From Escherichia phage vB_EcoM_SA21RB, in the sequence record OL960580: a stretch of DNA of 64,000 nt; one strand, written 5' to 3'. Below are positions 36,109 through 64,000 of this stretch, piece by piece. The position numbers and the translations under genes were made by a program. Each line of letters opens with the position of its first letter. Within the stretch, counting starts at the first letter, position 1. The notes beneath the pieces were generated by a model that did no database searches, had not been told where the DNA came from, and saw nothing but the letters and a program-made list of their open reading frames with translations.

Positions 36109-36672
36109 TTATTTATCTAGTTTAGTTATTATAGCTTCTGCGGCAGCTTTTAGCTTAGATGCGGTGTTAATACGATTTTTAATTTCAGTATACGCATCGC
36201 CAAGAACATCAAGGCTATCAGAATAAACACTTACACTATTGCGTTCGCTATTTGAAATAGAACCTTTAGTTTTACGATCAAAATCGGTGTACACGTCTTG
36301 AAGATCACGGGCTGCCTTCTTTGCATCATCCAATGCGTCAAGAGCTTTATTCAAAGCATTAACGTATTTTTTAGTGTCAAACATATTCTTAGAAATTTTA
36401 ACAGGTGCGCGTTCAGGAGTAGCTAATGTAGATTTAGGAACCTGAGCGCCAGATGCCAATTTCTTAGAAATTTTGAAAAACGCTTTATTGAATTTATTTT
36501 CTTGACTCATCGTAAAAGAACTATTATCGATGTTGTACATTTCAATAGCTTTAGCTTTCCACTTAAGAAAATCGCCGCGGTCTTTTGGGTCCAAGTGGAA
36601 GAATACTTTAGTAAGATCTGCTTCAGATGGTAATTTTGCTGCTTCGGTTAAAAATTCGGCATAGGTTTTCAT
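36109..36672 (-). CDS. internal-protein-like protein with capsid targeting sequence
   Basis: 187 aa; N-terminal MKTYAEFLTEAAK resembles the T4 internal-protein targeting peptide; terminator hairpin downstream. Confidence 0.55.
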   Translation of the reverse strand: MKTYAEFLTEAAKLPSEADLTKVFFHLDPKDRGDFLKWKAKAIEMYNIDNSSFTMSQENKFNKAFFKISKKLASGAQVPKSTLATPERAPVKISKNMFDTKKYVNALNKALDALDDAKKAARDLQDVYTDFDRKTKGSISNSERNSVSVYSDSLDVLGDAYTEIKNRINTASKLKAAAEAIITKLDK

Positions 36673-36796: not shown

Positions 36797-37270
36797 TTAT
36801 TTGATTTGTTTAGCAGACCAAATGCGGTCTTTGATGATTTTTTGAATGTCTTCAACATACTCTAGGTCATGAGCATGTGGGTTATCTTTGAAACTATAGG
36901 CACGGGCTAACTTTTGGCCTTCGGTTTTGATTACTAAAAGCTCTTTAAGGATAGCTTCATACTTAGCGATAATTCCTTTAACAATATTTTTTTCTTGTGT
37001 AGCTTTAGGATCTGCTTTAGGAGCAGGTTTACCCGAAGCCTTTGCAAAAGCAGCACCAGTAGCAACTAAACTTTTCCAGGCCATACTAACCGCATTTCCC
37101 GTAAATCCTTCTGCTTTCATGTCGCGAGCAAATTGGAATCGTGATTCGTCAGAAGCATCTTTATAGGAATATTTACCTGCTGCAATGGCTGCTTTTGCGA
37201 CAGCTTGAATTTCGGTGCTAGATGCTTCATTTAACACCGCTTCATTTAAAAATTGAGCATATGATTTCAT
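36797..37270 (-). CDS. internal-protein-like protein with capsid targeting sequence
   Basis: 157 aa; N-terminal MKSYAQFLNEAV; flanked on both sides by near-identical terminator hairpins. Confidence 0.55.
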   Translation of the reverse strand: MKSYAQFLNEAVLNEASSTEIQAVAKAAIAAGKYSYKDASDESRFQFARDMKAEGFTGNAVSMAWKSLVATGAAFAKASGKPAPKADPKATQEKNIVKGIIAKYEAILKELLVIKTEGQKLARAYSFKDNPHAHDLEYVEDIQKIIKDRIWSAKQIK

Positions 37271-37320
37271 CTTATTTCCTGTTTTAATTCGTAGATTTAA
37301 TATACTACTATATTTATACT

Positions 37321-37348
37321 AAAAAGCCCCAACCTTTCGGTTGGGGCT
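37321..37348 (-). terminator. rho-independent terminator (repeat copy B)
   Basis: minus strand AGCCCCAACCGAAAGGTTGGGGCT + TTTTT. Confidence 0.7.
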
Positions 37349-37396
37349 AAGCCTTGCGGCAACCTTGTCGGGGTTCCACCTGCTAAGGCAAGTGTT

Positions 37397-37490
37397 TGTA
37401 CGAAACGCCGGGATTCGAACCCGGTTATTAAGCAGTTGACGCTACTTAATATTTTTAAAAGGCCATATCTCGACCATATCCGAACGTTCC
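37397..37490 (-). ncRNA. tRNA-like element / small stable RNA candidate
   Basis: canonical T-arm (CCGGG-TTCGAAT-CCCGG) followed by a 7-nt 3-prime acceptor strand that pairs with CGGAACG about 85 nt upstream, but no regular D or anticodon arm; lies downstream of tRNA-Arg. Confidence 0.3.
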
Positions 37491-37664
37491 GTCAAAAACG
37501 CTACTCGGCTTACGGCAAAGATATTTCCTCGAATCGATAATTCGGTGCGCCGTTTCTGCTGTGGTGTAAGGGGATATTAATAAATCGTAAAGATTTATTA
37601 AGACCAGTCCTTACGCAGGGAACATCAGTCCGACGACTTACCGGTAGCGACCCGGTTTCTTGTT

Positions 37665-37740
37665 TGGTCGAGGCAGTAGGGATCGAACCTACGACCTAGG
37701 ACTTAGAAGGTCCTTGCTCTTCCTTCTGAGCTATGCCCCG
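37665..37740 (-). tRNA. tRNA-Arg (anticodon UCU)
   Basis: hand-folded cloverleaf; anticodon loop CTTCTAA; T-loop TTCGATC; encoded CCA. Confidence 0.85.
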
Positions 37741-37744
37741 TAAT

Positions 37745-37820
37745 TGGGGTGACCGATGGGAGTCGAACCCATGACTACGAGAATCACAATCTCGAGTTCT
37801 ACCAACTGAACTACGGCCAC
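37745..37820 (-). tRNA. tRNA-His (anticodon GUG)
   Basis: hand-folded; D-stem GTTC/GAAC, anticodon loop TTGTGAT, T-arm ATGGG-TTCGACT-CCCAT, discriminator C, encoded CCA. Confidence 0.8.
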
Positions 37821-37934
37821 ATTAATACCTACTCCAACAATCAAGATGTCTTCACACGAAATTAAGAGAAGAGTGATCAGTTCAACCCCGATAATCGCGT
37901 CAAGTAGATATTAATGTGACAGTTGTCACAAATT

Positions 37935-38009
37935 TGGCGGACGTGATAGGATTCGAACCTATAACCAATCGCTTAACAGGCGATCGCTCTGCCATTGAGC
38001 TACACATCC
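37935..38009 (-). tRNA. tRNA-Asn (anticodon GUU)
   Basis: hand-folded; acceptor GGATGTG/CACGTCC, anticodon loop CTGTTAA, T-loop TTCGAAT, encoded CCA. Confidence 0.85.
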
Positions 38010-38013
38010 AAAT

Positions 38014-38100
38014 TGGTGGGGAGTGATGGAGTCGAACCACCCGAGTCGCAATGACAATGGATTTACAGTCCACACCGCTACCTCTACGGGATAACTCCCC
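38014..38100 (-). tRNA. tRNA-Tyr (anticodon GUA)
   Basis: hand-folded; perfect acceptor GGGGAGT/ACTCCCC, anticodon loop CTGTAAA, long variable arm as in bacterial tRNA-Tyr, encoded CCA. Confidence 0.75.
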
Positions 38101-38113
38101 TTAATTCTTAATT

Positions 38114-38188
38114 TGGTGGCCCTGGGTGGAATTGAACCACCATCTGGCGATTATGAGTCGCTTGCTTGAACCTTCCAGCTACAGGGCC
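38114..38188 (-). tRNA. tRNA with CAU anticodon (Ile-lysidine type or Met)
   Basis: hand-folded; acceptor GGCCCTG/CAGGGCC, anticodon loop CTCATAA; lies after tRNA-Thr, where T4 has tRNA-Ile. Confidence 0.8.
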
Positions 38189-38189
38189 T

Positions 38190-38264
38190 TGGTGCTGATT
38201 GACGGAATCGAACCGCCGACCTTCTCATTACAAGTGAGTTGCTCTACCTACTGAGCTAAATCAG
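38190..38264 (-). tRNA. tRNA-Thr (anticodon UGU)
   Basis: hand-folded; perfect acceptor GCTGATT/AATCAGC, anticodon loop CTTGTAA, encoded CCA. Confidence 0.88.
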
Positions 38265-38270
38265 CAAAAC

Positions 38271-38360
38271 TGGCGGAGGCGATAGGATTTGAACCTATGA
38301 GTCGCCGGAGCGACTGCCGGTTTTCAAGACCGGTGCATTAAACCACTCTGCCACGCCTCC
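38271..38360 (-). tRNA. tRNA-Ser (anticodon UGA)
   Basis: hand-folded type II tRNA; acceptor GGAGGCG/CGCCTCC, anticodon loop CTTGAAA, long variable arm, encoded CCA. Confidence 0.85.
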
Positions 38361-38362
38361 AG

Positions 38363-38436
38363 TCTCCATACAAGGATTTGAACCTTGGACCTCCTGATCC
38401 CAAATCAGGCGCTCTACCAAACTGAGCTACACGGAG
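38363..38436 (-). tRNA. tRNA-Pro (anticodon UGG)
   Basis: hand-folded; anticodon loop TTTGGGA, T-arm CAAGG-TTCAAAT-CCTTG; CCA not encoded. Confidence 0.75.
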
Positions 38437-38446
38437 TAAATTAAAT

Positions 38447-38520
<74 letters not shown>

Positions 38521-38525
38521 AAATT

Positions 38526-38612
38526 TGGTGCGAGAAGTGGGACTCGAACCCACAAGGAAATCATTCCGCAGCATTTTAAGTGCTGTGCCTTTACCAATTT
38601 GACCATTCTCGC
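38526..38612 (-). tRNA. tRNA-Leu (anticodon UAA)
   Basis: hand-folded type II tRNA; acceptor GCGAGAA/TTCTCGC, anticodon loop CTTAAAA, long variable arm, encoded CCA. Confidence 0.85.
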
Positions 38613-38613
38613 G

Positions 38614-38686
38614 CTGGGAATAAAGGACTCGAACCTTTGCATCCTGGAATCAAAATCCAGTGCCTTACCAACTTGGCTAATTCCCA
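38614..38686 (-). tRNA. tRNA-Gln (anticodon UUG)
   Basis: hand-folded; perfect acceptor TGGGAAT/ATTCCCA, anticodon loop TTTTGAT; abuts tRNA-Leu (dimeric precursor as in T4); CCA not encoded. Confidence 0.85.
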
Positions 38687-38772
38687 ATTATTAACAAAGG
38701 CTCTCTAACAAGAACCCTTGATGATATAGGGTATTAATCAGTGCGGTATGAGTTAATAATAACAAATAATTC

Positions 38773-39288
38773 TTAAAGCAAATTAAACATCTTAACGGTC
38801 GGCAAAACAATTTCTTCTTCTATATAAGAGTATTTAACACTCTCAACTACACGCAAAAAATCATAATCATAATATTCAGAAGCACTGCCTAAAATATTAA
38901 TAAGTCCTTCAAGCACTTTATTACCATTCACAAAGAATAAGTCAAATACACGTTCTTCGTCTTCTTCGGATTTATTACCAAGGTCAACTTCTATATCAAA
39001 GACCTTTTTAATGAATTCTGGATAAAGCTGGTCTGAGAACAGTCCTTCAACCAAGTATTCATAGATAAAAAGCGATTGCTCGCTGAACAAACCATTACCG
39101 CAATAACGTTCAACTTTTGTGCTAGAATGTCTGCTTTTAAACTTCTTTAAAAGATATTGGAATTGTAAGATTTCATGCTCTTCTACGCCAAACAGTGTTT
39201 TAGTTTTATAGTTGTCACCATCATTTTCCCAGGTAGTGACATCAATTACGTAACCCTGCGGAATTGTAGTACCTAAACAAATATTCAT
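38773..39288 (-). CDS. hypothetical acidic protein
   Basis: 171-aa ORF upstream of the tRNA cluster. Confidence 0.5.
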   Translation of the reverse strand: MNICLGTTIPQGYVIDVTTWENDGDNYKTKTLFGVEEHEILQFQYLLKKFKSRHSSTKVERYCGNGLFSEQSLFIYEYLVEGLFSDQLYPEFIKKVFDIEVDLGNKSEEDEERVFDLFFVNGNKVLEGLINILGSASEYYDYDFLRVVESVKYSYIEEEIVLPTVKMFNLL

Positions 39289-39578
39289 TTGCTCACCATA
39301 TTAATGTAAGTATATTCAATACATTCAAGACCCAAAGGATTCTTGAAAATATCATATTCAAGAGGACCTTTTTCTGTTTCAATAAAGAAATCAAAATTTA
39401 CTGTGTTAAATTTACGGTCTTCCTTCACCAATTTAACTTGAGAAGATGAACGGTCAATGTAAACCTTTTCAACTTCAAAACATGTTAAAATGCCATAATC
39501 ATCAATCAAGGCTTTAGCCGCGTCTTGATCATATTTATATCCATTTTCAATTGACGATACTTTAGCATAAAGAATCAT
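39285..39578 (-). CDS. hypothetical protein
   Basis: 97-aa ORF, 4-nt overlap with neighbour. Confidence 0.45.
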   Translation of the reverse strand: MILYAKVSSIENGYKYDQDAAKALIDDYGILTCFEVEKVYIDRSSSQVKLVKEDRKFNTVNFDFFIETEKGPLEYDIFKNPLGLECIEYTYINMVSK

Positions 39579-39580
39579 TA

Positions 39581-40000
39581 TCAGCCTTCATCAACAATAG
39601 TATGAGTGTGGGCATTTACAATTTGCCACCAATCAAAGCGATTAGAACCATACATCGGTTTGTTTTCATTTTCTTTGATAATATCACGGAGTTCATCTTC
39701 GGTAGCGGCTTTCGCGATTAAATCAGCATATCCACCACGAGGATAATAATTATCACCTGCAAAAAGTAAAAAGTTCGGTTTAATATTATTGAACTCTTCA
39801 AGAGTAATAACTTTTCCTGTCGGTTGAACAATCTCTACATATTTATATCCTAATTTTTGAGCAGCATCTACTGCTTCAAGCAAAGTATCATGAGCCCATC
39901 CAATTTGACAACCTGGCTTTTCAGATGGATTAGCCTGATAATCCGCGTACACTTTATACATTCTATTCACCTTTAGAAATTTTATCCATAACGATAGCAA
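39581..40000 (-). CDS. hypothetical protein
   Basis: 139-aa ORF. Confidence 0.45.
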   Translation of the reverse strand: MLSLWIKFLKVNRMYKVYADYQANPSEKPGCQIGWAHDTLLEAVDAAQKLGYKYVEIVQPTGKVITLEEFNNIKPNFLLFAGDNYYPRGGYADLIAKAATEDELRDIIKENENKPMYGSNRFDWWQIVNAHTHTIVDEG

Positions 40001-40148
40001 TTAAACCAATTAAAAATGCTACTACAAGTGAAAAAACATTTTCTGCTGTAGTTAATAATCCGCATATAAATCCAACAAACATTGAAAAACTAAAAGCAGA
40101 AGCAGAAATTGCAATAGCAACATTTCGAATTAATTCACAACGTTTCAT
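39963..40148 (-). CDS. small membrane protein
   Basis: 61 aa with two hydrophobic segments; early promoter upstream. Confidence 0.45.
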   Translation of the reverse strand: MKRCELIRNVAIAISASAFSFSMFVGFICGLLTTAENVFSLVVAFLIGLIAIVMDKISKGE

Positions 40149-40172
40149 TTTATTCTCCTCAGTAGTTGATAG

Positions 40173-40208
40173 GGTAATAGTATCACAACTAAAACCCTAT
40201 GTAAACAA
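40173..40208 (-). promoter_or_regulatory. T4 early promoter
   Basis: minus strand GTTTAC ... GATACTATTAC. Confidence 0.55.
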
Positions 40209-40224
40209 CTTTGTGAAATATTTA

Positions 40225-40512
40225 TTACAAAAGATTTTTAGCAATAATCTTGAGATGTGCCGCAGAAATGTGTTTAGCTTTAAACAACGCAGTTTCTTCA
40301 GCAGGAGAGATAACGATTGTAGCACCATCCTTTTTAGCAGACCACCCATCGCCTAGGTAAACAGTACCTTTGATTTCTTCGCCATCAACCAGACTAATCA
40401 TTGGTTTACCTTCTCGTCCTTTATTTGCTTTAATAACTTCAGAAGTAAGAGTAGCTTCGGTAATAGTAGAAACCGGGGTAGTTGTAGAAGTAAATTCTTT
40501 GAAAGTTTTCAT
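40225..40512 (-). CDS. ipI: internal protein I (capsid-packaged, injected; inhibitor of a type IV restriction enzyme in T4)
   Basis: 95 aa; 19-aa targeting peptide MKTFKEFTSTTTPVSTITE followed by a 76-aa body, matching the remembered IPI precursor/mature sizes; directly upstream of 57B; early promoter upstream. Confidence 0.6.
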   Translation of the reverse strand: MKTFKEFTSTTTPVSTITEATLTSEVIKANKGREGKPMISLVDGEEIKGTVYLGDGWSAKKDGATIVISPAEETALFKAKHISAAHLKIIAKNLL

Positions 40513-44005: not shown

Positions 44006-44596
44006 ATGCTCTTTACATTTTTTGATCCGATTGAATATGCGGCCAAAACGGTGAATAAAAACGCGCCGACTATTCCTATGACAGATATTTTTAGAAACTA
44101 TAAAGACTATTTCAAACGTGCTCTTGCGGGATATCGCTTACGTACTTATTACATTAAAGGTTCACCACGCCCGGAAGAATTAGCAAATGCTATATATGGA
44201 AATCCGCAGTTGTATTGGGTTTTATTGATGTGTAATGATAATTATGATCCGTATTATGGATGGATTACTTCGCAAGAAGCTGCTTATCAAGCATCTATAC
44301 AAAAATACAAAAACGTAGGTGGAGACCAAATAGTATATCATGTGAATGAAAACGGTGAAAAATTTTATAATTTAATATCATACGATGATAATCCATATGT
44401 TTGGTATGACAAAGGCGATAAAGCTAGAAAATATCCTCAATATGAAGGAGCACTTGCTGCGGTCGATACGTATGAAGCTGCTGTTCTTGAAAATGAAAAA
44501 CTTCGTCAAATAAAAATAATAGCAAAATCAGACATCAATTCATTTATGAACGACCTTATACGTATAATGGAGAAATCTTATGGAAATGATAAGTAA
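44006..44596 (+). CDS. 53: baseplate wedge protein gp53
   Basis: 196 aa; TATAAATA late promoter and GGAGGG ribosome-binding site upstream. Confidence 0.88.
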   Translation: MLFTFFDPIEYAAKTVNKNAPTIPMTDIFRNYKDYFKRALAGYRLRTYYIKGSPRPEELANAIYGNPQLYWVLLMCNDNYDPYYGWITSQEAAYQASIQKYKNVGGDQIVYHVNENGEKFYNLISYDDNPYVWYDKGDKARKYPQYEGALAAVDTYEAAVLENEKLRQIKIIAKSDINSFMNDLIRIMEKSYGNDK

Positions 44597-46307
44597 TAAC
44601 CTTAATTGGTTTGTTGGTGTTGTTGAAGATAGAATGGACCCATTAAAATTAGGTCGTGTTCGTGTTCGTGTAGTTGGTCTGCATCCACCTCAAAGAGCAC
44701 AAGGCGACGTAATGGGTATTCCAACTGATAAATTACCATGGATGTCAGTTATTCAACCTATAACTTCTGCAGCAATGTCTGGAATTGGAGGCTCCGTTAC
44801 TGGTCCGGTAGAAGGAACTAGAGTTTATGGTCATTTTTTAGACAAATGGAAAACTAACGGAATTGTCCTTGGCACTTATGGTGGAATAGTTCGCGAAAAA
44901 CCGAATAGACTTGAAGGATTTTCTGACCCGACTGGACAGTATCCTAGACGTCTAGGAAATGATACTAACGTATTAAACCAAGGCGGAGAAGTAGGATATG
45001 ATTCGTCTTCTAATATTATCCAAGATAGCAATCTAGATACTGCGATAAATCCTGATGATAGACCGCTATCAGAGATTCCAACTGATGATAATCCAAATAT
45101 GTCAATGGCTGAAATGCTTCGCCGTGATGAAGGATTAAGACTAAAAGTTTATTGGGATACTGAAGGATATCCGACAATTGGCATTGGTCATCTTATCATG
45201 AAGCAGCCAGTTCGTGATATGACTCAAATTAATAAAGTTTTATCAAAACAAGTTGGTCGTGAAATTACCGGAAATCCAGGTTCTATTACAATGGAAGAAG
45301 CGGTAACTTTATTTGAACGTGATTTAGCTGATATGCAACGTGACATTAAATCACATTCTAAAGTTGGCCCAGTTTGGCAAGCAGTTAATCGTTCTCGTCA
45401 AATGGCATTAGAAAATATGGCATTTCAGATGGGTGTTGGCGGTGTAGCTAAATTTAACACAATGTTAACTGCTATGTTAGCCGGAGATTGGGAAAAAGCA
45501 TATAAAGCTGGTCGTGATTCACTGTGGTATCAACAAACAAAAGGCCGTGCATCCCGTGTTACCATGATTATTCTTACGGGAAATTTGGAATCATACGGTG
45601 TTGAAGTGAAAACCCCAGCTAGGTCTCTATCAGCAATGGCTGCTACTGTAGCAAAGTCTTCTGATCCAGCTGACCCTCCTATTCCGAATGATTCGAGAAT
45701 TTTATTTAAAGAACCTGTTTCTTCATATAAAGGTGAATATCCGTATGTTCACACAATGGAAACTGAAAGCGGTCATATTCAGGAATTTGATGATACCCCG
45801 GGACAAGAACGATACAGATTAGTTCATCCGACTGGAACATATGAGGAAGTATCACCGTCAGGAAGAAGAACAAGAAAAACTGTTGATAATTTGTATGATA
45901 TAACAAATGCTGATGGTAATTTTTTGGTAGCTGGCGATAAAAAGACTAACGTCGGTGGATCAGAAATTTATTACAACATGGATAATCGTCTTCACCAAAT
46001 AGATGGAAGCAATACAATATTTGTACGTGGCGATGAAACTAAGACGGTTGAAGGTAATGGAACTATCCTAGTCAAAGGTAATGTTACTATTGTAGTTGAA
46101 GGTAATGCTGACATTACAGTTAAAGGAGATGCTACCACTTTAGTTGAAGGAAATCAGACTAATACAGTAAATGGAAATCTTTCTTGGAAAGTTGCTGGGA
46201 CAGTTGATTGGGACGTTGGTGGTGATTGGACAGAAAAAATGGCATCTATGAGTTCTATTTCATCTGGTCAATACACAATTGATGGATCGAGGATTGACAT
46301 TGGCTAA
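44580..46307 (+). CDS. 5: baseplate hub/cell-puncturing protein gp5 with lysozyme domain
   Basis: 575 aa; OB-fold N-terminus, central lysozyme domain (MAEMLRRDEGLRLKVYWDTEGYPTIGIGHL), C-terminal beta-helix repeats (VEGN/VKGN). Confidence 0.95.
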   Translation: MEMISNNLNWFVGVVEDRMDPLKLGRVRVRVVGLHPPQRAQGDVMGIPTDKLPWMSVIQPITSAAMSGIGGSVTGPVEGTRVYGHFLDKWKTNGIVLGTYGGIVREKPNRLEGFSDPTGQYPRRLGNDTNVLNQGGEVGYDSSSNIIQDSNLDTAINPDDRPLSEIPTDDNPNMSMAEMLRRDEGLRLKVYWDTEGYPTIGIGHLIMKQPVRDMTQINKVLSKQVGREITGNPGSITMEEAVTLFERDLADMQRDIKSHSKVGPVWQAVNRSRQMALENMAFQMGVGGVAKFNTMLTAMLAGDWEKAYKAGRDSLWYQQTKGRASRVTMIILTGNLESYGVEVKTPARSLSAMAATVAKSSDPADPPIPNDSRILFKEPVSSYKGEYPYVHTMETESGHIQEFDDTPGQERYRLVHPTGTYEEVSPSGRRTRKTVDNLYDITNADGNFLVAGDKKTNVGGSEIYYNMDNRLHQIDGSNTIFVRGDETKTVEGNGTILVKGNVTIVVEGNADITVKGDATTLVEGNQTNTVNGNLSWKVAGTVDWDVGGDWTEKMASMSSISSGQYTIDGSRIDIG

Positions 46308-46836
46308 TATACTTCCAATGAGCGCTGATTTAGGAGAATCCATGGAAGGTTCTTCTATCGACGTCACCTTTACAGCTCAATTAGAAACAGGTGAAACGTT
46401 AGTATCTATAAATATAACTAGTTACGAAGAAACTCCTGGGGTTTTAGTAGAAGAAAATCGTTTATATGGAACGTATGAATCTGTATTTGGATTTGGAAAT
46501 GATGCGCTGAAATATCGTTTAGATAATGAATTTAAAACTGCTGCTTCATGGGAAGACCTTCCAACTGATTCTAATACTCAGTTATATTTATGGAAAGCTC
46601 CTCAAAACCTCCAGAAGACATTCACTTACGAAGTAACATTAATATATGACTACCAAGAACAAGGTGAATCTGGAGGTTCTGGCAGTAATTCTAGGTCATC
46701 TTCTGATACTACTGAACCGACGAATCCCCCAGCTCCAATAAGAAAAACTCTTGTTAAAAATTATACAAAAACTATAGTTGGAAATTGGAGTCGTTGGGCT
46801 AATAAATTGAGAAGCTACGTGTATGAGAGGCCATAA
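46279..46836 (+). CDS. baseplate-associated protein (5.1 position)
   Basis: 185-aa ORF overlapping gp5 end; glycine/serine-rich C-terminal region; true start may be internal. Confidence 0.6.
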
Positions 46837-47130
46837 ATGTCAGGATTAAGTTATGATAAGTGTGTTACTGCCGGCCATGAAGCATGGCCTCCAACAGTTG
46901 TGAATGCTACACAAAGTAAAGTATTCACTGGAGGAATTGCTGTTCTCGTAGCAGGTGATCCAATTACAGAACATACAGAAATTAAAAAGCCATATGAAAC
47001 ACATGGCGGAGTGACACAACCTAGAACTTCTAAGGTATATGTCACTGGAAAGAAAGCTGTTCAAATGGCTGATCCAATATCATGCGGTGATACTGTGGCT
47101 CAGGCATCATCTAAAGTATTCATTAAATAG
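46837..47130 (+). CDS. 5.4: PAAR-repeat spike tip protein gp5.4
   Basis: 97 aa; [19 protein letters not shown]... small beta-rich protein at the T4 gp5.4 position. Confidence 0.85.
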
Positions 47131-47138
47131 GATTTAAA

Positions 47139-49121
47139 ATGGCAAATACCCCTGTAAATTATCAATTAACAAGAACAGCAAATGCTATTCCCGAGATATT
47201 CGTCGGGGGTACATTTGCTGAAATAAAACAAAACCTCATTGAATGGCTTAATGGTCAAAATGAATTTTTGGATTATGATTTTGAAGGCTCAAGATTAAAC
47301 GTTCTGTGCGACCTTTTGGCTTATAATACATTGTACATTCAGCAGTTTGGTAATGCTGCCTTGTATGAAAGCTTTATGCGTACTGCTAATTTGCGTAGTT
47401 CAGTAGTTCAAGCTGCACAAGATAATGGATATTTACCTACTTCAAAATCAGCTGCTCAAACTGAAATTATGCTAACTTGTACAGATGCATTGAATAGAAA
47501 TTACATTACTATTCCTCGCGGTACTCGCTTTTTAGCATATGCAAAAGATACTTCCGTTAATCCTTACAACTTTGTATCTACCGAAGATGTTATTGCTATT
47601 CGCGATAAAAATAACCAATATTTTCCGCGTTTAAAATTAGCCCAGGGGCGTATAGTAAGAACTGAAATCATTTACGATAAATTAACACCTATTATCATTT
47701 ATGACAAAAATATAGATAGAAACCAAGTTAAATTATACGTTGATGGAGCAGAATGGATTAACTGGACAAGAAAGTCAATGGTTCATGCTGGTTCTACATC
47801 AACAATTTACTACATGCGTGAAACTATTGATGGAAATACTGAGTTTTATTTTGGTGAAGGTGAGATTTCTGTTAATGCGGCAGAAGGAGCATTGACTGCT
47901 AATTATATTGGAGGTCTTAAACCTACCCAGAACTCTACGATTGTTATTGAGTACATCAGTACTAACGGTGCAGATGCGAATGGCGCAGTCGGATTTTCAT
48001 ATGCAGATACATTAACAAATATAACTGTCATCAATATTAATGAAAATCCAAACGATGACCCAGATTTTGTTGGGGCAGATGGCGGCGGTGATCCAGAAGA
48101 TATTGAGCGTATTCGCGAATTGGGTACTATTAAACGCGAAACCCAGCAGCGATGCGTAACTGCAACTGACTATGATACATTCGTTTCAGAGAGATTTGGT
48201 TCTATTATTCAAGCAGTTCAGACGTTCACTGATTCTACTAAACCTGGTTATGCATTTATTGCTGCTAAACCTAAATCAGGTCTGTATTTAACTACCGTAC
48301 AGCGCGAAGATATTAAAAATTATCTCAAAGACTATAATTTAGCTCCTATTACACCATCAATTATTTCTCCTAATTATCTTTTTATTAAGACTAATTTAAA
48401 AGTCACATATGCTTTAAATAAGCTGCAAGAATCCGAACAGTGGCTCGAAGGTCAAATAATTGATAAAATTGATCGTTATTATACAGAAGATGTAGAAATT
48501 TTTAACTCATCTTTCGCTAAATCTAAGATGTTGACATATGTAGATGATGCAGATCATTCTATCATTGGTTCATCAGCGACAATTCAAATTGTTCGTGAAG
48601 TACAAAACTTCTATAAAACGCCTGAAGCGGGTATTAAATACAATAATCAAATAAAAGATCGTTCTATGGAATCTAATACGTTTTCATTTAATTCTGGACG
48701 AAAGGTTGTAAATCCTGATACTGGTTTAGAAGAAGATGTATTATATGACGTCCGCATAGTATCAACAGACCGAGATTCTAAAGGAATTGGTAAAGTTATT
48801 ATTGGTCCATTTGCTTCTGGCGATGTTACAGAAAATGAAAACATTCAGCCATATACAGGCAACGATTTTAACAAATTAGCAAATTCTGATGGACGCGACA
48901 AATACTATGTTATCGGTGAAATAAATTATCCAGCTGATGTGATTTATTGGAATATCGCTAAAATTAATTTAACATCTGAAAAATTTGAAGTTCAGACTAT
49001 CGAATTATATTCTGACCCAACCGATGATGTTATCTTTACTCGCGATGGTTCACTGATTGTATTTGAAAATGACTTACGTCCACAATACTTAACTATCGAT
49101 TTGGAGCCTATATCACAATGA
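47139..49121 (+). CDS. 6: baseplate wedge protein gp6
   Basis: 660 aa, T4 gp6 length; position between 5.4 and 7. Confidence 0.9.
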   Translation: MANTPVNYQLTRTANAIPEIFVGGTFAEIKQNLIEWLNGQNEFLDYDFEGSRLNVLCDLLAYNTLYIQQFGNAALYESFMRTANLRSSVVQAAQDNGYLPTSKSAAQTEIMLTCTDALNRNYITIPRGTRFLAYAKDTSVNPYNFVSTEDVIAIRDKNNQYFPRLKLAQGRIVRTEIIYDKLTPIIIYDKNIDRNQVKLYVDGAEWINWTRKSMVHAGSTSTIYYMRETIDGNTEFYFGEGEISVNAAEGALTANYIGGLKPTQNSTIVIEYISTNGADANGAVGFSYADTLTNITVININENPNDDPDFVGADGGGDPEDIERIRELGTIKRETQQRCVTATDYDTFVSERFGSIIQAVQTFTDSTKPGYAFIAAKPKSGLYLTTVQREDIKNYLKDYNLAPITPSIISPNYLFIKTNLKVTYALNKLQESEQWLEGQIIDKIDRYYTEDVEIFNSSFAKSKMLTYVDDADHSIIGSSATIQIVREVQNFYKTPEAGIKYNNQIKDRSMESNTFSFNSGRKVVNPDTGLEEDVLYDVRIVSTDRDSKGIGKVIIGPFASGDVTENENIQPYTGNDFNKLANSDGRDKYYVIGEINYPADVIYWNIAKINLTSEKFEVQTIELYSDPTDDVIFTRDGSLIVFENDLRPQYLTIDLEPISQ

Positions 49122-52100
49122 CAGTAAAAGCACCTTCAGTCACTAGTCTCAGAATTTCCAAGTTATCCGCAAATCAGGTGCAAGTACGCTGGGATGACGT
49201 TGGTGCTAATTTCTACTATTTTGTAGAAATCGCTGAGACAAAAACAAACTCGGGGGAAAATCTCCCGAGTAATCAATACAGATGGATTAACTTAGGATAT
49301 ACTGCAAATAACAGCTTCTTTTTTGATGATGCTGACCCGTTGACATCATACGTTATTAGAGTAGCTACAGCTGCACAAGATTTTGAACAGTCTGATTGGA
49401 TTTATACCGAAGAGTTTGAAACTTTTGCTACAAATGCTTATACATTTCAAAACATGATTGAAATGCAATTAGCCAATAAATTCATTCAGGAAAAATTTAC
49501 TCTTAATAATTCTGATTATGTCAATTTTAATAATGACACTATAATGGCTGCATTGATGAATGAATCATTTCAATTCAGCCCATCATATGTTGATGTTTCA
49601 TCAATAAGTAATTTTATTATTGGTGAAAATGAGTATCATGAAATACAAGGTTCTATTCAGCAAGTATGTAAGGATATTAACCGAGTTTATTTGATGGAAT
49701 CAGAAGGGATTTTATACCTTTTTGAGCGCTATCAGCCTGTAGTTAAAGTATCCAATGATAAAGGACAAACTTGGAAAGCTGTAAAGCTCTTCAATGACCG
49801 TGTAGGATATCCTTTATCTAAGACAGTATATTACCAATCTGCGAACACAACATACGTTCTAGGATATGATAAGATTTTCTATGGCCGCAAATCGACTGAT
49901 GTTAGATGGTCAGCTGATGATGTCAGATTTAGTTCTCAGGATATAACATTTGCTAAACTTGGCGACCAATTACATTTAGGATTTGATGTAGAAATTTTTG
50001 CCACCTACGCAACTTTGCCAGCGAATGTATATCGCATTGCAGAAGCTATTACTTGCACCGATGATTACATTTACGTTGTCGCCAGAGACAAAGTTAGATA
50101 CATAAAAACTAGTAATGCACCTATAGATTCTGATCCATTATCTCCAACATATTCGGAAAGGCTTTTTGAACCTGATACAATGACTATAACCGGAAATCCT
50201 AAAGCAGTATGCTATAAAATGGATTCTATCGGTGATAAAGTTTTTGCTCTTATTATTGGTGAAGTTGAAACATTAAATGCTAATCCTAGAACATCAAAAA
50301 TAATTGATTCTGCTGATAAAGGAATATATGTTTTAAATCATGACACAAAAACATGGAAAAGAGTTTTTGGCAACACCGAAGAAGAAAGAAGACGTATTCA
50401 ACCAGGGTATGCGAATATGTCAACTGATGGTAAATTAGTTTCTCTATCATCGAGTAATTTTAAATTTTTAAGTGATAATGTTGTTAATGACCCTGAAACT
50501 GTAGCAAAATATCAGTTAATCGGTGCTGTTAAATATGAATTTCCTCGTGAATGGTTAGCTGATAAGCATTATCATATGATGGCATTTATAGCAGATGAAA
50601 AGTCTGATTGGGAAACTTTTACTCCTCAGCCGATGAAATACTATGCAGAACCATTCTTTAACTGGTCTAAAAAATCTAACACGCGTTGTTGGATAAACAA
50701 CTCTGATAGGGTTGTAGTAGTTTATGCTGATTTAAAATACACTAAAGTTATAGAAAATATTCCGGAAACATCACCAGATAGATTAGTTCATGAATATTGG
50801 GATGATGGCGATTGTACTATAGTAATGCCAAATGTTAAATTCACTGGATTTAAAAAATATGCATCTGGGATGCTTTTCTATAAAGCCTCTGGTGAAATAA
50901 TTTCTTACTATGATTTTAACTATCGTGTTAGAGACACTGTCGAAATTATTTGGAAGCCAACTGGAGTATTTTTAAAAGCATTTTTACAAAACCAAGAGCA
51001 TGAAACCCCTTGGTCGCCTGAAGAAGAGCGTGGATTAGCTGACCCTGATTTAAGACCATTGATTGGCACAATGATGCCTGATTCTTATTTGTTACAGGAT
51101 TCGAATTTTGAGGCATTTTGCGAAGCATATATTCAGTATCTTTCTGATGGATATGGAACCCAGTATAATAATTTACGAAATTTAATTCGTAACAAATATC
51201 CACGAGAAGAGCATGCATGGGAATATTTGTGGTCAGAGATATATAAAAGAAACATTTATTTAAATGCTGACAAACGCGATGCTGTTGCAAGATTTTTCGA
51301 ATCACGTAGCTATGATTTTTATTCTACTAAAGGAATTGAAGCATCATACAAATTTCTTTTTAAAGTTCTTTATAATGAAGAGGTTGAAATTGAAATTGAA
51401 TCTGGGGCTGGTACTGAATATGATATAATCGTTCAATCTGATTCTTTGACTGAAGACTTAGTAGGACAAACGATTTATACAGCCACAGGAAGATGTAATG
51501 TTACTTATATAGAAAGAAGCTATTCTAATGGTAAATTGCAATGGACCGTAACTATTCATAATCTTTTGGGAAGATTGATTGCCGGTCAAGAAGTTAAAGC
51601 AGAAAGACTTCCTAGTTTTGAAGGCGAAATTATTCGTGGCGTTAAAGGAAAGGATTTGCTTCAAAACAATATAGACTATATTAATAGAAGTAGATCATAC
51701 TATGTAATGAAAATTAAATCCAATTTACCTTCTTCCCGCTGGAAATCTGACGTTATTCGTTTTGTTCATCCAGTAGGATTTGGATTTATAGCAATTACCC
51801 TTTTAACAATGTTTATTAATGTTGGTTTAACTCTTAAACATACAGAGACTATAATTAATAAATACAAAAACTATAAATGGGATTCTGGATTGCCTACTGA
51901 ATACGCTGATAGAGTAGCTAAATTAACTCCAACCGGTGAAATTGAGCATGATTCAGTAACAGGCGAAGCAATTTATGAGCCTGGCCCAATGGCTGGCGTA
52001 AAATATCCTCTTCCTGATGACTATAATGCTGAAAATAATAATTCAATATTTCAAGGTCAATTGCCGTCTGAACGACGTAAATTAATGAGTCCTTTATTTG

Positions 52101-52216
52101 ATGCATCTGGAACAACATTTGCACAATTTAGGGATTTAGTTAATAAACGTCTAAAAGATAATATAGGAAATCCAAGAGACCCTGAAAATCCAACACAGGT
52201 TAAAATAGATGAATGA
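49118..52216 (+). CDS. 7: baseplate wedge protein gp7
   Basis: 1032 aa, T4 gp7 length; 4-nt overlap with gp6. Confidence 0.9.
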   Translation: MTVKAPSVTSLRISKLSANQVQVRWDDVGANFYYFVEIAETKTNSGENLPSNQYRWINLGYTANNSFFFDDADPLTSYVIRVATAAQDFEQSDWIYTEEFETFATNAYTFQNMIEMQLANKFIQEKFTLNNSDYVNFNNDTIMAALMNESFQFSPSYVDVSSISNFIIGENEYHEIQGSIQQVCKDINRVYLMESEGILYLFERYQPVVKVSNDKGQTWKAVKLFNDRVGYPLSKTVYYQSANTTYVLGYDKIFYGRKSTDVRWSADDVRFSSQDITFAKLGDQLHLGFDVEIFATYATLPANVYRIAEAITCTDDYIYVVARDKVRYIKTSNAPIDSDPLSPTYSERLFEPDTMTITGNPKAVCYKMDSIGDKVFALIIGEVETLNANPRTSKIIDSADKGIYVLNHDTKTWKRVFGNTEEERRRIQPGYANMSTDGKLVSLSSSNFKFLSDNVVNDPETVAKYQLIGAVKYEFPREWLADKHYHMMAFIADEKSDWETFTPQPMKYYAEPFFNWSKKSNTRCWINNSDRVVVVYADLKYTKVIENIPETSPDRLVHEYWDDGDCTIVMPNVKFTGFKKYASGMLFYKASGEIISYYDFNYRVRDTVEIIWKPTGVFLKAFLQNQEHETPWSPEEERGLADPDLRPLIGTMMPDSYLLQDSNFEAFCEAYIQYLSDGYGTQYNNLRNLIRNKYPREEHAWEYLWSEIYKRNIYLNADKRDAVARFFESRSYDFYSTKGIEASYKFLFKVLYNEEVEIEIESGAGTEYDIIVQSDSLTEDLVGQTIYTATGRCNVTYIERSYSNGKLQWTVTIHNLLGRLIAGQEVKAERLPSFEGEIIRGVKGKDLLQNNIDYINRSRSYYVMKIKSNLPSSRWKSDVIRFVHPVGFGFIAITLLTMFINVGLTLKHTETIINKYKNYKWDSGLPTEYADRVAKLTPTGEIEHDSVTGEAIYEPGPMAGVKYPLPDDYNAENNNSIFQGQLPSERRKLMSPLFDASGTTFAQFRDLVNKRLKDNIGNPRDPENPTQVKIDE

Positions 52217-53213
52217 TTCAAGTGTTATCTATCGTGCGATAGTTACTTCAAAATTTAGAACAGAAAAAATGTTGAATTTTTATAATTCAATTGGAAGTGG
52301 TCCGGATAAAAACACTATCTTTATCACATTTGGAAGATCAGAACCATGGTCATCAAATGAAAATGAGGCGGGCTTTGCCCCGCCTTATCCCACTGATTCT
52401 GTATTAGGTGTAACTGATATGTGGACACATATGATGGGAACAGTAAAGGTTCTTCCATCAATGCTTGATGCTGTTATTCCTCGCAGAGATTGGGGAGATA
52501 CTAGATATCCGGATCCATACACATTTAGAATTAACGATATTGTAGTGTGTAACTCAGCTCCTTACAATGCTACTGAATCAGGCGCAGGCTGGCTAGTATA
52601 TCGTTGTTTAGATGTTCCTGATACTGGAATGTGTTCAATAACATCTTTAACTGATAAGGATGAATGCCTCAAATTAGGTGGAAAATGGACTCCTTCTGCT
52701 AGGTCAATGACTCCTCCTGAAGGTCGAGGAGACGCGGAAGGAACAATCGAACCCGGCGACGGATATGTTTGGGAATATCTTTTTGAGATTCCGCCTGATG
52801 TATCTATAAATAGATGCACGAATGAATATATCGTGGTTCCTTGGCCTGAGGAATTAAAAGAAGACCCGGCTAGATGGGGGTATGAAGATAATCTCACTTG
52901 GCAACAAGATGATTTTGGATTAATTTACCGTGTTAAGGCAAATACTATCCGTTTTAAAGCATATTTAGATTCAGTTTATTTTCCTGAAGCTGCATTGCCG
53001 GGAAATAAAGGATTTAGACAAATATCAATAATCACGAATCCTCTTGAAGCTAAAGCTAATCCAAATGACCCAAACGTTAAAGCTGAAAAGGATTATTATG
53101 ATCCGGAAGATTTAATGAGGCATTCGGGCGAAATGATTTATATGGAAAATAGGCCACCTATTATCATGGCAATGGATCAAACAGAAGAAATCAATATTCT
53201 GTTTACATTTTAA
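52209..53213 (+). CDS. 8: baseplate wedge protein gp8
   Basis: 334 aa; followed by a hairpin terminator and the gene 9 late promoter. Confidence 0.9.
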   Translation: MNDSSVIYRAIVTSKFRTEKMLNFYNSIGSGPDKNTIFITFGRSEPWSSNENEAGFAPPYPTDSVLGVTDMWTHMMGTVKVLPSMLDAVIPRRDWGDTRYPDPYTFRINDIVVCNSAPYNATESGAGWLVYRCLDVPDTGMCSITSLTDKDECLKLGGKWTPSARSMTPPEGRGDAEGTIEPGDGYVWEYLFEIPPDVSINRCTNEYIVVPWPEELKEDPARWGYEDNLTWQQDDFGLIYRVKANTIRFKAYLDSVYFPEAALPGNKGFRQISIITNPLEAKANPNDPNVKAEKDYYDPEDLMRHSGEMIYMENRPPIIMAMDQTEEINILFTF

Positions 53214-53218
53214 CTTAA

Positions 53219-53244
53219 GGGAGCCCATGGGCTCCCTTTTTCTT
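53219..53244 (+). terminator. rho-independent terminator after gene 8
   Basis: GGGAGCCCATGGGCTCCC followed by TTTTTCTTT. Confidence 0.7.
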
Positions 53245-53252
53245 TATAAATA
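53245..53252 (+). promoter_or_regulatory. T4-type late promoter for gene 9
   Basis: exact TATAAATA 25 nt upstream of the gp9 ATG, just after the gp8 terminator. Confidence 0.7.
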
Positions 53253-53276
53253 CTATAAACTCATAAGGAAACCGCT

Positions 53277-59650: not shown

Positions 59651-59653
59651 CAT

Positions 59654-59669
59654 GGGGCCGCAAGGCCCC
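59654..59669 (+). terminator. hairpin after wac (possible terminator/RNA stabiliser)
   Basis: GGGGCC-GCAA-GGCCCC immediately after the wac stop; no clear U-tract. Confidence 0.4.
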
Positions 59670-59682
59670 AAAGGATTTTTAA

Positions 59683-61384
<1,702 letters not shown>

Positions 61385-61425
61385 TAAATATTATAAACTA
61401 ATTAAAGCCCAGATTAGGAGAAATC

Positions 61426-64000
<2,575 letters not shown>

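Follow-up and report, generated by a model that had tools for sequence, protein, structure and literature searches.

Composition and extent of the cluster

The locus raises the question of what three tRNA genes for tyrosine, asparagine and histidine are doing in a phage cluster that otherwise resembles the tRNA cluster of T4. ARAGORN, run on the whole 64-kb stretch of DNA that was analysed (hereafter the window), called 11 tRNA genes, all on the minus strand between 37665 and 38686 (Table 1). All 11 were also matched by the Rfam family RF00005 at or above the gathering score, ten of them with 59-74 bits (E 1e-10 to 1e-14) and tRNA-Tyr with 30.2 bits. A preliminary description, based on folding by hand, had listed eleven genes including His, Asn and Tyr, and ARAGORN rejected none of its folds. 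The interval that it had given, 37665-38100, takes in Arg, His, Asn and Tyr, the four distal genes, and not the whole cluster.

In the order of the RNA the genes are Gln, Leu, Gly, Pro, Ser, Thr, CAU, Tyr, Asn, His and Arg, followed by rnaD, rnaC and a terminator. The ORF layout and an alignment with T4, Aplg8, 101117BS1 and UGKSEcP1 placed ipI/trna.2-4 on one side of the cluster and the e.x genes on the other. These flanks, the order of the eight T4 specificities and the presence of rnaD, rnaC and the terminator downstream of tRNA-Arg are those of the T-even stable-RNA operon. Between the CAU tRNA and tRNA-Arg there is no segB ORF; tRNA-Tyr and tRNA-Asn are found there instead, as in the segB-less T2-type form. 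The only ORFs of at least 40 aa in this stretch are spurious ones overlapping tRNA genes, and Pfam and PHROG searches of the flanking ORFs returned only phage families of unknown function.

Table 1. Stable-RNA genes and associated elements of the locus (window coordinates)
Feature	Position	Strand	Evidence
Conserved 5' flank, upstream of tRNA-Gln	38687-38760	minus	near base-for-base identity to T4, Aplg8 and 101117BS1 (alignment)
tRNA-Gln(UUG) (ARAGORN ttg)	38613-38686	minus	67.4 bits; 65/73 identical to T4
tRNA-Leu(UAA) (ARAGORN taa), class II	38526-38612	minus	59.3 bits; 87/87 identical to T4
tRNA-Gly(UCC) (ARAGORN tcc)	38447-38520	minus	63.3 bits; 73/74 identical to T4
tRNA-Pro(UGG) (ARAGORN tgg), CCA end not encoded	38362-38436	minus	66.8 bits; 74/74 identical to T4
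tRNA-Ser(UGA) (ARAGORN tga), class II, CCA encoded	38271-38360	minus	62.6 bits; body 87/87 identical to T4
tRNA-Thr(UGU) (ARAGORN tgt)	38190-38265	minus	72.9 bits; 73/76 identical to T4
CAU-anticodon tRNA	38114-38188	minus	ARAGORN label Met; 75/75 identical to T2
tRNA-Tyr(GUA) (ARAGORN gta), bacterial class II, A73, CCA encoded	38014-38100	minus	RF00005, 30.2 bits
tRNA-Asn(GUU) (ARAGORN gtt), G73, CCA encoded	37935-38009	minus	74.1 bits; 75/75 identical to T2
Short hairpin GUGACAACUGUCAC	37916-37929	minus	fold
96-nt structured leader of tRNA-His	37821-37916	minus	14-bp closing stem P1 (37902-37915 with 37821-37834), two inner hairpins
tRNA-His(GUG) (ARAGORN gtg), C73, CCA encoded	37745-37820	minus	65.1 bits; canonical cloverleaf
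tRNA-Arg(UCU) (ARAGORN tct), T2-type allele	37665-37740	minus	66.1 bits; 74/76 identical to T2, only 49/70 to T4
rnaD homologue (T4 stable 'species 2' RNA)	37544-37663	minus	104/118 aligned positions identical to T4 rnaD; annotated rnaD in Aplg8
rnaC homologue (T4 stable 'species 1' RNA)	37399-37537	minus	136/139 identical to annotated T4 rnaC
Intrinsic terminator, end of RNA cluster	37318-37348	minus	10-bp stem with 7 G-C pairs, GAAA loop, then TTTTT; annotated terminator in Aplg8

The 11 tRNAs, rnaD and rnaC form a head-to-tail series on the minus strand that ends at a single predicted intrinsic terminator. By homology with T4, the RNA is probably made as multi-tRNA precursors, from which the tRNAs would be cut out by host RNases (RNase P and others). 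A scan of 37000-40500 with the sigma-70 consensus gave 10 sites, against 9.8 expected from shuffled sequence, and no promoter was assigned; nor was a MotA-box-like motif seen by eye in the conserved 5' flank. This flank may serve as a processing site or as a leader close to the promoter. Rfam searches of 37250-38800 at E up to 10 gave no credible match for the leader, rnaC or rnaD, and the weak matches (Plastid-ycf2, sX4, YrlA, tRNA-Sec) were rejected as echoes of the tRNA genes.

Comparison with T4, T2, T6 and other tequatroviruses

The T4 cluster (NC_000866, 70.9-72.5 kb) consists of Gln, Leu, Gly, Pro, Ser, Thr, Ile(CAU), the segB CDS, Arg, rnaD and rnaC. It corresponds to the window in position, flanks (ipI, trna.2-4; e.x), strand and the order of the shared eight tRNAs, the last of these as stated in the preliminary description. 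Equally correct was its statement on the T4 set: the annotation of NC_000866 holds eight tRNAs, and Tyr, Asn and His are absent. From Gln to Thr the genes are 89-100% identical, whereas the CAU (47/72 identical) and Arg tRNAs of T4 are alleles different from those of the window. The homing endonuclease gene segB of T4 sits where the window has Tyr, Asn, the leader and His. All eight differences between the two tRNA-Gln genes lie in the anticodon arm (positions 27, 28, 30, 32, 38, 40, 42 and 43), and tRNA-Ser ends in GCCA in the window but in GTAA in T4, where CCA is not encoded.

The CAU-anticodon tRNA most likely is of the Ile2 type and not a tRNA-Met, judging from its sequence, because its best matches in E. 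coli, its anticodon arm and its acceptor stem are all of Ile type. The best matches are genes annotated tRNA-Ile (81.6% identity over the full length), the 17-nt anticodon arm AGCGA-CTCATAA-TCGCC is the same as that of the E. coli Ile(CAT) gene, and T4 tRNA-Ile has the same acceptor stem, GGCCCTG. Besides this Ile2-type arm the tRNA has C4:G69 and C5:G68, two acceptor-stem pairs that are determinants for TilS, and a G1:C72 pair, so that it is not an initiator. After lysidine modification it would be expected to read AUA.

T2/T2L (AP018813; Brok-Volchanskaya et al. 2008, PMC2330249) resembles the window in lacking segB and in the order CAU-Tyr-Asn-Arg; its Asn and CAU tRNAs are 100% identical to those of the window, and Tyr (86/87) and Arg (74/76) nearly so. 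T2 differs, however, in having neither the leader nor tRNA-His, with only 4 nt between Asn and Arg, in having an ORF instead of tRNA-Thr, and in carrying a 351-bp ORF between Arg and rnaD that the window lacks. The preferred cleavage site of SegB is the tRNA-Asn gene of T2L, in which a 27-bp site was mapped and into which SegB homing was described (PMC2330249); the tRNA-Asn gene of the window is identical to that of T2 AP018813. T6 carries a tRNA-Tyr that is 85/87 identical to that of the window and also placed after the CAU tRNA, followed by segB, and lacks Asn, His, Pro and Ser. As the window has no segB, the SegB-driven amplification of tRNA-Tyr seen in T6 cannot occur in cis.

The arrangement as a whole is already known. 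The preliminary description had implied that it was new, but many GenBank records annotate the 11-gene version, and the description of T2-type clusters dates from 2008; the window represents a further isolate with the same arrangement. The tequatroviruses Aplg8 (KT184308), Sf22 (NC_042039), UGKSEcP1 (OV877085) and vB_EcoM-101117BS1 (MZ234018) have these 11 tRNAs in an unchanged order, at 98-100% identity and with point differences only, and 101117BS1 likewise lacks the 351-bp ORF. The annotation of Aplg8 gives the 11 tRNAs together with rnaC, rnaD and the terminator. At the DNA level the locus shares 98-99% identity with many Tequatrovirus genomes, PMC7917993 reports tequatroviruses with 8 or 11 tRNAs, and the Tyr-Asn-His block was found in at least 186 phage records.

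The additional tRNA-Tyr and tRNA-Asn

The tRNA-Asn of the window has G73 and the GUU anticodon, which make up the identity set of bacterial tRNA-Asn. In tRNA-Tyr we found the long variable arm, A73 and GUA anticodon of bacterial tRNA-Tyr, the identity set being listed in PMC9976931. The D stem of its cloverleaf contains one mismatch and one G.U pair. In contrast to its near-identity to the T6 and T2 genes, it shares only 60/89 aligned positions with E. coli tyrT. When the phage tRNA-Tyr and tRNA-Asn were compared with E. coli chromosomes by blastn, no cognate genes were matched, the sequences being too diverged, and the host tRNA genes used for comparison were taken by coordinates. The phage-type tRNA-Tyr is spread over unrelated phages and about 270 E. 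coli plasmids.

Codon usage was compared between the ORFs of the window, which were called mechanically, and a single 50-kb sample of E. coli K-12. In this comparison Tyr and Asn were the first and third most over-used amino acids (1.78x and 1.63x); UAU was used 2.5x and AAU 3.4x more than in the E. coli sample, and both still more in the late baseplate/tail block. The codons AGA, AUA, UCA, ACA, GGA, UUA, CAA and CCA were used 1.5-7.4x more by the phage, again with stronger enrichment in the late block. His was under-used (0.63x overall); in the late block it accounted for 10.6 of every 1000 codons, compared with 25.6 in E. coli.

The suggestion that the extra tRNAs adjust codon supply for AT-rich late genes thus fits Tyr and Asn, over-used and more so in the late block, but not His, which is under-used and still lower there. 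The eight tRNAs of the T4 set would read A-ending codons over-used by the phage, and tRNA-Tyr and tRNA-Asn most likely augment the tRNA pool for two amino acids in heightened demand in this AT-rich phage. A larger supply of tRNA-Tyr would also act as a buffer against host defences that destroy tRNA-Tyr. Since His codons are depleted, codon supply does not explain tRNA-His.

Supply, defence or passengers

It had further been proposed that the extra tRNAs replace host tRNAs cleaved by anticodon nucleases. In their 7-nt anticodon loops the Tyr, Asn, His and CAU tRNAs of the phage do not differ from those of E. coli, and the idea of nuclease-resistant anticodon loops was rejected for these four; any anti-nuclease role would therefore act by dosage. 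The T6 tRNA-Tyr, expressed and functional, counteracts Septu (Chihara et al. 2026, PMC13096335), which cuts tRNA-Tyr in the variable arm and not in the anticodon, cleaves the phage copy too, and is overcome in a dosage-dependent manner (PMC13096335). The tRNA-Tyr of the window is nearly identical to this tested gene (85/87). For tRNA-Tyr, the proposed replacement of cleaved tRNAs thus finds support in published work on a close homologue.

Taken further, Tyr, Asn and His could be mainly spare parts against defence, with which the phage would outlast a depletion of the tRNAs, a serious possibility that we nevertheless do not favour. The three are among the four tRNAs with GUN anticodons (the queuosine family), which are the target set of anticodon nucleases of the colicin E5 type, although this 'three of four' pattern was noticed only post hoc. 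A general form of the hypothesis, in which colicin E5 is included, was described in PMC10264068. tRNA-Tyr is in addition a target of the Septu and retron-Eco7 effectors. Its T6 version rescues T6 from Septu, deletion of the T6 tRNA region sensitises the phage, and T4, without tRNA-Tyr, cannot escape (PMC13096335); retron-Eco7 is countered by the tRNA-Tyr of T5 (PMC11555353). A defensive role would also fit the spread of the phage-type tRNA-Tyr over unrelated phages and plasmids, and it would concern a tRNA-His that codon demand does not account for. However, with loops equal to those of the host, resistance to a loop-specific nuclease is not evident, and the wild-type dosage of a phage tRNA-Tyr that Septu itself cuts is insufficient, escape requiring amplification. 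Moreover, we found no report of a phage-defence nuclease acting on tRNA-Asn or tRNA-His, colicin E5 being a colicin.

It is highly improbable, and was already disfavoured, that Tyr, Asn and His are functionless, decaying passengers, representing the locus as it stands where a homing endonuclease has not taken their place. In favour of this, the region is a dispensable and strongly mosaic one: T4, T6, T2, JLBYU24 and UFV-AREG1 each lack different tRNAs and often have an endonuclease gene or an unknown ORF instead, and the D stem of tRNA-Tyr is imperfect. Against decay, all three genes keep full cloverleaves, correct discriminator bases and an encoded CCA, they are 99-100% conserved over hundreds of genomes, stem changes between genera are compensated, and the T6 tRNA-Tyr works in the cell. 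We are confident that the locus represents the segB-less T2-type version of a Tequatrovirus (T4-like coliphage) stable-RNA operon, to which a leader/tRNA-His module is added; tRNA-Tyr and tRNA-Asn most likely have a supply role, with tRNA-Tyr acting as an anti-defence buffer as well.

tRNA-His and its structured leader

The body of tRNA-His is that of a bacterial tRNA-His, with a cloverleaf, the GUG anticodon and C73. Its 5' side is not: position -1 is U (window base 37821) and position -2 is A, whereas E. coli hisR encodes G at -1. U was found at -1 in all relatives of this tRNA-His that were examined. According to PMC9976931 and PMC5499578, the bacterial rule is an encoded G-1 that pairs with C73 and is preceded by U at -2, RNase P cutting between -2 and -1; G-1 is the major identity element for HisRS, and when it is lost, charging by the E. 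coli enzyme drops more than 100-fold. With no encoded G-1 for E. coli HisRS, 'supply' is doubtful for tRNA-His on this count too. In an IMG/VR sample, phage tRNA-His genes embedded in clusters had G at -1 in 41 cases and T in 16. A second class of U-1 genes was considered as possible tRNA-Val(CAC) on the opposite strand; this was ruled out, all neighbouring tRNAs lying on the strand of the His call. Changes in the stems of tRNA-His between genera are compensated.

The leader ends with position -1 of tRNA-His as its last base. Its single-sequence fold has z = -2.98, and in an alignment of sequences from 4 genera and UFV-AREG1, 98.8% of the cells were paired, compared with about 50% when the partners were slid (RNAalifold and pair counts); five pairs had changed on both sides. 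The leader occurs in 355 phage records, none of which annotates the element itself as a feature. Its sequence (37821-37916) had no match in Rfam at gathering scores and, among the matches listed at E up to 10, only a chance-level one below threshold that overlapped just its 3' end. A covariance model (R1), searched against the window and 55 other loci, recovered only the known copies; neither a further copy in the window nor one beside other phage tRNA-His genes was found. Scanning IMG/VR with an exact 15-mer yielded 52 loci, 48 of them chance matches, and a degenerate-pattern scan gave one new variant, L196, and two chance matches.

In Karamvirus, Jiaodavirus and Gelderlandvirus (e.g. Pet-CM3-4, Hyena_ER38 and Melville) the same leader lies directly 5' of a homologous tRNA-His with U at -1. 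Unlike in the window, the module is located there after tRNA-Gln and before Ser, inside larger tRNA clusters. The inner-hairpin sequence of Melville and L196 differs from that of the window leader, with the fold kept. The closing stem was also considered as the terminal inverted repeats of a MITE-like DNA element; this was rejected because the stem intermediates are all G.U on the tRNA-sense strand and none A.C, and because the two inner hairpins covary as well.

The leader overlaps by one base a short hairpin whose 3' half, GUCAC (37916-37920), could pair with G1-C5 of tRNA-His as well and is kept in members of Tequatro-, Karam- and Gelderlandvirus. In this fold the leader helix locks position -1 and abuts the acceptor stem, and the 5 nt upstream of the helix can sequester G1-C5.

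Another reading is that the module is not an ordinary translational tRNA gene and that its tRNA-like part is matured or used in some unusual manner; it might, for example, act as a decoy or regulator that is charged poorly, or be a tRNA for which the folded leader determines the 5' end. We consider this unlikely. It would agree with U-1 and A-2 standing in place of the G-1 and U-2 that make E. coli RNase P leave G-1, with the charging defect noted above, with a 14-bp stem that ends exactly at -1 and covaries across genera, and with the pairing of GUCAC to G1-C5. The depletion of His codons in the phage and the majority of cluster-embedded phage tRNA-His genes that do encode G-1 point the same way. 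However, the tRNA body is canonical (65 bits, C73, CCA, host-identical anticodon loop), with compensatory changes typical of a working tRNA; poor charging could be offset by high expression; and the structured spacer may be no more than a signal for processing or, as with rnaC and rnaD, a stable by-product.

More broadly, it may be proposed, very tentatively and as rather less than likely, that tRNA-His and its 96-nt leader form one conserved unit across genera of the Tevenvirinae whose tRNA is matured or used unconventionally. Such a unit might be a regulated pro-tRNA that RNase III opens, or a tRNA without G-1 that evades or titrates some host factor; alternatively, it could give rise to a third stable small RNA in addition to rnaC and rnaD.

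Implications

The tRNA region of T-even phages is a known mosaic hot spot in which accessory tRNAs and homing endonuclease genes replace each other. The present cluster is a clean example, in which the accessory Tyr and Asn tRNAs follow amino-acid demand and recent work links one of the two to the escape from a defence that cleaves tRNA. Its tRNA-His, widely conserved among phages, breaks the near-universal bacterial G-1 rule and is joined to an undescribed structured leader. If the leader/tRNA-His module is real as a unit, it would offer a simple system for studying 5'-end choice and HisRS identity during infection, and would allow one to ask what a tRNA-His does in a phage that uses little histidine.

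The tRNA gene cluster

ARAGORN identified exactly 11 tRNA genes in the whole window, all on the minus strand, and the Rfam tRNA model matched each of them at or above its gathering score, 10 of the 11 at 59–74 bits. The cluster is far above chance, which confirms the observation in the preliminary description. The interval reported there, 37665-38100, holds the four distal genes, but the full cluster spans 37665-38686 and is read from right to left. The remaining gene, tRNA-Tyr (30.2 bits), is of class II with a long variable arm, and the D stem of its cloverleaf contains one mismatch and one G.U pair. The T4 record bears out the comparison with T4 made there: it lists Gln, Leu, Gly, Pro, Ser, Thr, Ile(CAU), the segB CDS, Arg, rnaD and rnaC. 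Per-gene comparison with T4 placed homologues of the stable-RNA genes rnaD and rnaC downstream of the tRNA cluster.

Features of the tRNA region in the window
Feature	Position	Strand	Basis or remark
intrinsic terminator	37325-37348	-	downstream of tRNA cluster
rnaC homologue	37399-37537	-	136/139 identical to T4
rnaD homologue	about 37544-37663	-	104/118 identical to T4
tRNA-Arg(UCU)	37665-37740	-	ARAGORN, Rfam
tRNA-His(GUG)	37745-37820	-	ARAGORN, Rfam
structured leader, 96-nt spacer core	37821-37916	-	directly 5' of tRNA-His
tRNA-Asn(GUU)	37935-38009	-	ARAGORN, Rfam
tRNA-Tyr(GUA)	38014-38100	-	ARAGORN, Rfam
CAU tRNA	38114-38188	-	ARAGORN, Rfam
tRNA-Thr(UGU)	38190-38265	-	ARAGORN, Rfam
tRNA-Ser(UGA)	38271-38360	-	ARAGORN, Rfam
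tRNA-Pro(UGG)	38362-38436	-	ARAGORN, Rfam
tRNA-Gly(UCC)	38447-38520	-	ARAGORN, Rfam
tRNA-Leu(UAA)	38526-38612	-	ARAGORN, Rfam
tRNA-Gln(UUG)	38613-38686	-	ARAGORN, Rfam

The tRNA-Gln gene differs from that of T4 (locus L004, 6459-6531) at 8 positions (27, 28, 30, 32, 38, 40, 42 and 43), all in the anticodon arm, and is otherwise identical. The stem changes are compensated, whereas loop positions 32/38 are U/U in the window and C/C in T4. Both alleles circulate, 101117BS1 carrying that of the window and Aplg8 that of T4. The tRNA-Ser gene ends in an encoded GCCA in the window, Aplg8 and 101117BS1; the T4 gene reads GTAA and thus lacks an encoded CCA. ARAGORN labelled the CAU tRNA as Met. Against this label, its top E. 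coli matches are annotated as tRNA-Ile (81.6% identical, full length), its 17-nt anticodon arm is the same as that of the E. coli Ile(CAT) gene, and T4 tRNA-Ile shares its acceptor stem, GGCCCUG, in which C4:G69 and C5:G68 occur and G1:C72 is a normal pair. Judged by its sequence, this tRNA is best read as an Ile2 type, which would read AUA after lysidine modification.

Comparison with related phages

Many Tequatrovirus genomes match the 1.5-kb region at 98–99% identity, and in Aplg8 all eleven tRNAs, rnaD, rnaC and a terminator are annotated. A four-way alignment and per-gene comparisons showed that T4 is 89–100% identical from Gln to Thr, but has different alleles of the CAU tRNA (47/72) and tRNA-Arg (49/70), and carries the 666-bp homing endonuclease gene segB at the exact place of Tyr, Asn, the 114-nt spacer and His in the window. 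T2 (AP018813) is much the same as the window in Asn (75/75), CAU (75/75), Tyr (86/87) and Arg (74/76), but has a gap of only 4 nt between Asn and Arg, where the window has the spacer and His. The cluster of the window is therefore of the T2 type, lacking segB, with an added spacer-His module.

At least 186 phage records contain the Tyr-Asn-spacer-His block (coverage at least 80%); Shigella phage SF2-1 has it with 100% identity, and Sf22 is one of those in which its genes are annotated as tRNA-Tyr, -Asn and -His. Every intermediate arrangement was found among related phages: T6 has Tyr followed by segB and is without Asn, His, Pro and Ser; T2 has Tyr and Asn, with an ORF (133 aa, L193 5711-6112) replacing Thr; in JLBYU24 a seg-like endonuclease gene (L007 585-1235) replaces tRNA-Pro; and UFV-AREG1 has kept the spacer and lost His. 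The replacements in JLBYU24 and T2 show repeated exchange of single tRNA genes within the tequatrovirus cluster. According to published work, segB is missing from T2L, RB1 and RB3, which carry Met(CAU), Tyr, Asn and Arg; the preferred SegB cut lies within the tRNA-Asn gene of T2L, and this segment is excluded when SegB homes (PMC2330249). Reports of tequatroviruses with 8 or 11 tRNAs are routine (PMC7917993). In view of this published work the 11-tRNA cluster is not new; it is a widely annotated, already known variant of the T-even tRNA operon.

Most close relatives, including UGKSEcP1, Aplg8 and T2, carry a segment of ~360 bp with a 116-aa ORF (phrog_3355, unknown function; L003 1861-2211) between tRNA-Arg and rnaD, which is missing in the window (junction about 37664) and in vB_EcoM-101117BS1. 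Just downstream of the terminator, two adjacent minus-strand ORFs of 187 and 157 aa (36109-36672 and 36797-37270), both phrog_2280 (unknown function), look like a tandem paralogue pair; nothing comparable is present at this spot in T4. A 171-aa minus-strand ORF (phrog_2290, unknown function; 38773-39288) between trna.2 and tRNA-Gln is shared by T2 and many relatives, whereas T4 and T6 lack it.

Codon supply and replacement of cleaved host tRNAs

Two roles had been suggested for the additional tRNAs, adjustment of codon supply for late genes and replacement of host tRNAs cleaved by nucleases; as a whole, this interpretation was partly supported. Codons were counted in 80 long non-overlapping ORFs (84% of the window sequence) and compared with ORFs called likewise in a 50-kb E. 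coli K-12 sample. The codons of the eight canonical tRNAs were all enriched in the phage: AGA 7.4x, AUA 4.8x, UCA and ACA both 3.6x, GGA 3.4x, UUA 2.9x, CAA 1.6x and CCA 1.5x. Among the amino acids, Tyr ranked first in over-use (1.78x) and Asn third (1.63x), with UAU at 2.5x and AAU at 3.4x, but His was the second most depleted (0.63x). The plus-strand block 44006-62747 was taken as the late block from its synteny and from ORF sizes that fit those of T4 gp53, 5-12, wac, 13, 14 and 15. Per 1000 codons, this block contains 71 for Asn, 47 for Tyr and 10.6 for His, versus 37, 25.5 and 25.6 in the E. coli sample. Tyr and Asn thus agree with the codon-supply idea, whereas His does not.

Replacement of cleaved tRNAs has good support for Tyr, by homology with T6, whose tRNA-Tyr is identical to that of the window at 85 of 87 positions. 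Septu cleaves tRNA-Tyr in the variable arm, and added phage tRNA-Tyr rescues T6 infection; T6 with its tRNA region deleted is sensitised, and T4, which lacks tRNA-Tyr, is unable to escape (PMC13096335). Since Septu also cuts the phage copy (PMC13096335), the effect is one of dosage. The tRNA-Tyr of T5 has a similar role against retron-Eco7 (PMC11555353). Over both roles, the interpretation is plausible for Asn and as yet unsupported for His. Colicin E5 targets the four tRNAs with GUN anticodons, among them those for Tyr, Asn and His, and a link between this colicin and phage tRNAs has been raised in general terms (PMC10264068). In each of the phage tRNAs Tyr, Asn, His and CAU, however, the anticodon loop (7 nt) is the same as in its E. 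coli counterpart, with no sign of resistance-conferring changes.

The E. coli plasmid pEC881_2 (NZ_CP019027; L011 2921-3747) carries an Asn-Tyr-Thr-Ser tRNA cluster, of which tRNA-Tyr is identical to the phage copy at 82 of 87 positions (94.3% in the BLAST search). Plasmids with similar copies were found in 269 E. coli genomes; most of these plasmids are of ~110 kb and are probably phage-plasmids. The chromosomal tyrT/tyrV genes were missed by blastn; of 89 aligned positions, only 60 match the phage gene.

A structured leader and a tRNA-His without G-1

The predicted fold of the 114-nt Asn-His spacer is better than those of its shuffled versions (z = -2.98). A total of 355 phage records contain its 96-nt core, from phages of Escherichia, Shigella, Klebsiella, Enterobacter, Cronobacter, Salmonella and others. 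None of them has an annotation for the element as such, which in every genome examined is immediately 5' of tRNA-His, except in UFV-AREG1, where His is lost. No Rfam match was found for the element, nor a second copy in the window or 55 other loci. For nine distinct aligned sequences, RNAalifold predicted a 14-bp closing stem with two inner hairpins. Paired cells amounted to 98.8%, versus 40–51% with partners slid by 1–3 columns; five pairs had changed on both sides by pair counting, and none of 500 shuffles reached the observed covariation score. The covariation spans Tequatro-, Karam-, Jiaoda- and Gelderlandvirus. All intermediate pair states are G.U on the tRNA-sense strand, which argues for an RNA structure rather than DNA inverted repeats. 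In variant L196 and Melville the inner-hairpin sequence is replaced and the hairpin kept.

On its 3' strand the closing stem runs up to position -1 of tRNA-His. Just 5' of the stem, GUCAC (37916-37920) is complementary to G1-C5 of tRNA-His, and in a joint fold it extends the leader helix to ~19 bp at the cost of the acceptor stem; covariation gave no support for this extension. GUCAC is also the 3' half of a minus-strand hairpin, GUGACAACUGUCAC (37916-37929), just upstream of the leader stem, so that this hairpin and the extended helix are mutually exclusive.

The tRNA-His itself folds well as a cloverleaf and its gene encodes C73 and CCA, but has U at -1 (37821) and A at -2, where E. coli hisR has G at -1. 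Bacterial tRNA-His genes normally encode G-1, which along with U-2 and C73 directs RNase P to cleave between -2 and -1; without G-1, charging by E. coli HisRS drops more than 100-fold (PMC5499578; PMC9976931). By these rules RNase P would leave no -1 residue on the tRNA-His of the window, and HisRS would charge it more than 100-fold less well. U at -1 is present in all homologues from four Tevenvirinae genera. Phage tRNA-His genes within tRNA clusters in an IMG/VR sample, biased by the search pattern, had G (41), T (16), C (2) or A (1) at this position, the T class comprising the leader-linked family and a second one.

The second U-1 family (L092, L142, L154, L160, L164, L172, L177, L180, L182 and L191) is unrelated to that of the window. 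Its leader UUAGGU/UUUGGU pairs with the 3' trailer CCCUAA/CCCAAA around the U-1/C73 mismatch (G-2:C74, G-3:C75 and onward), with one compensatory A:U to U:A change.

The leader may keep the tRNA-His precursor in a closed form, to be opened by a double-strand-specific cut, or it may be set free as a stable small RNA comparable to rnaC and rnaD. We tentatively suggest, while considering it rather doubtful, that the leader and the G-1-less tRNA-His form a new functional RNA element with an unconventional maturation or use.
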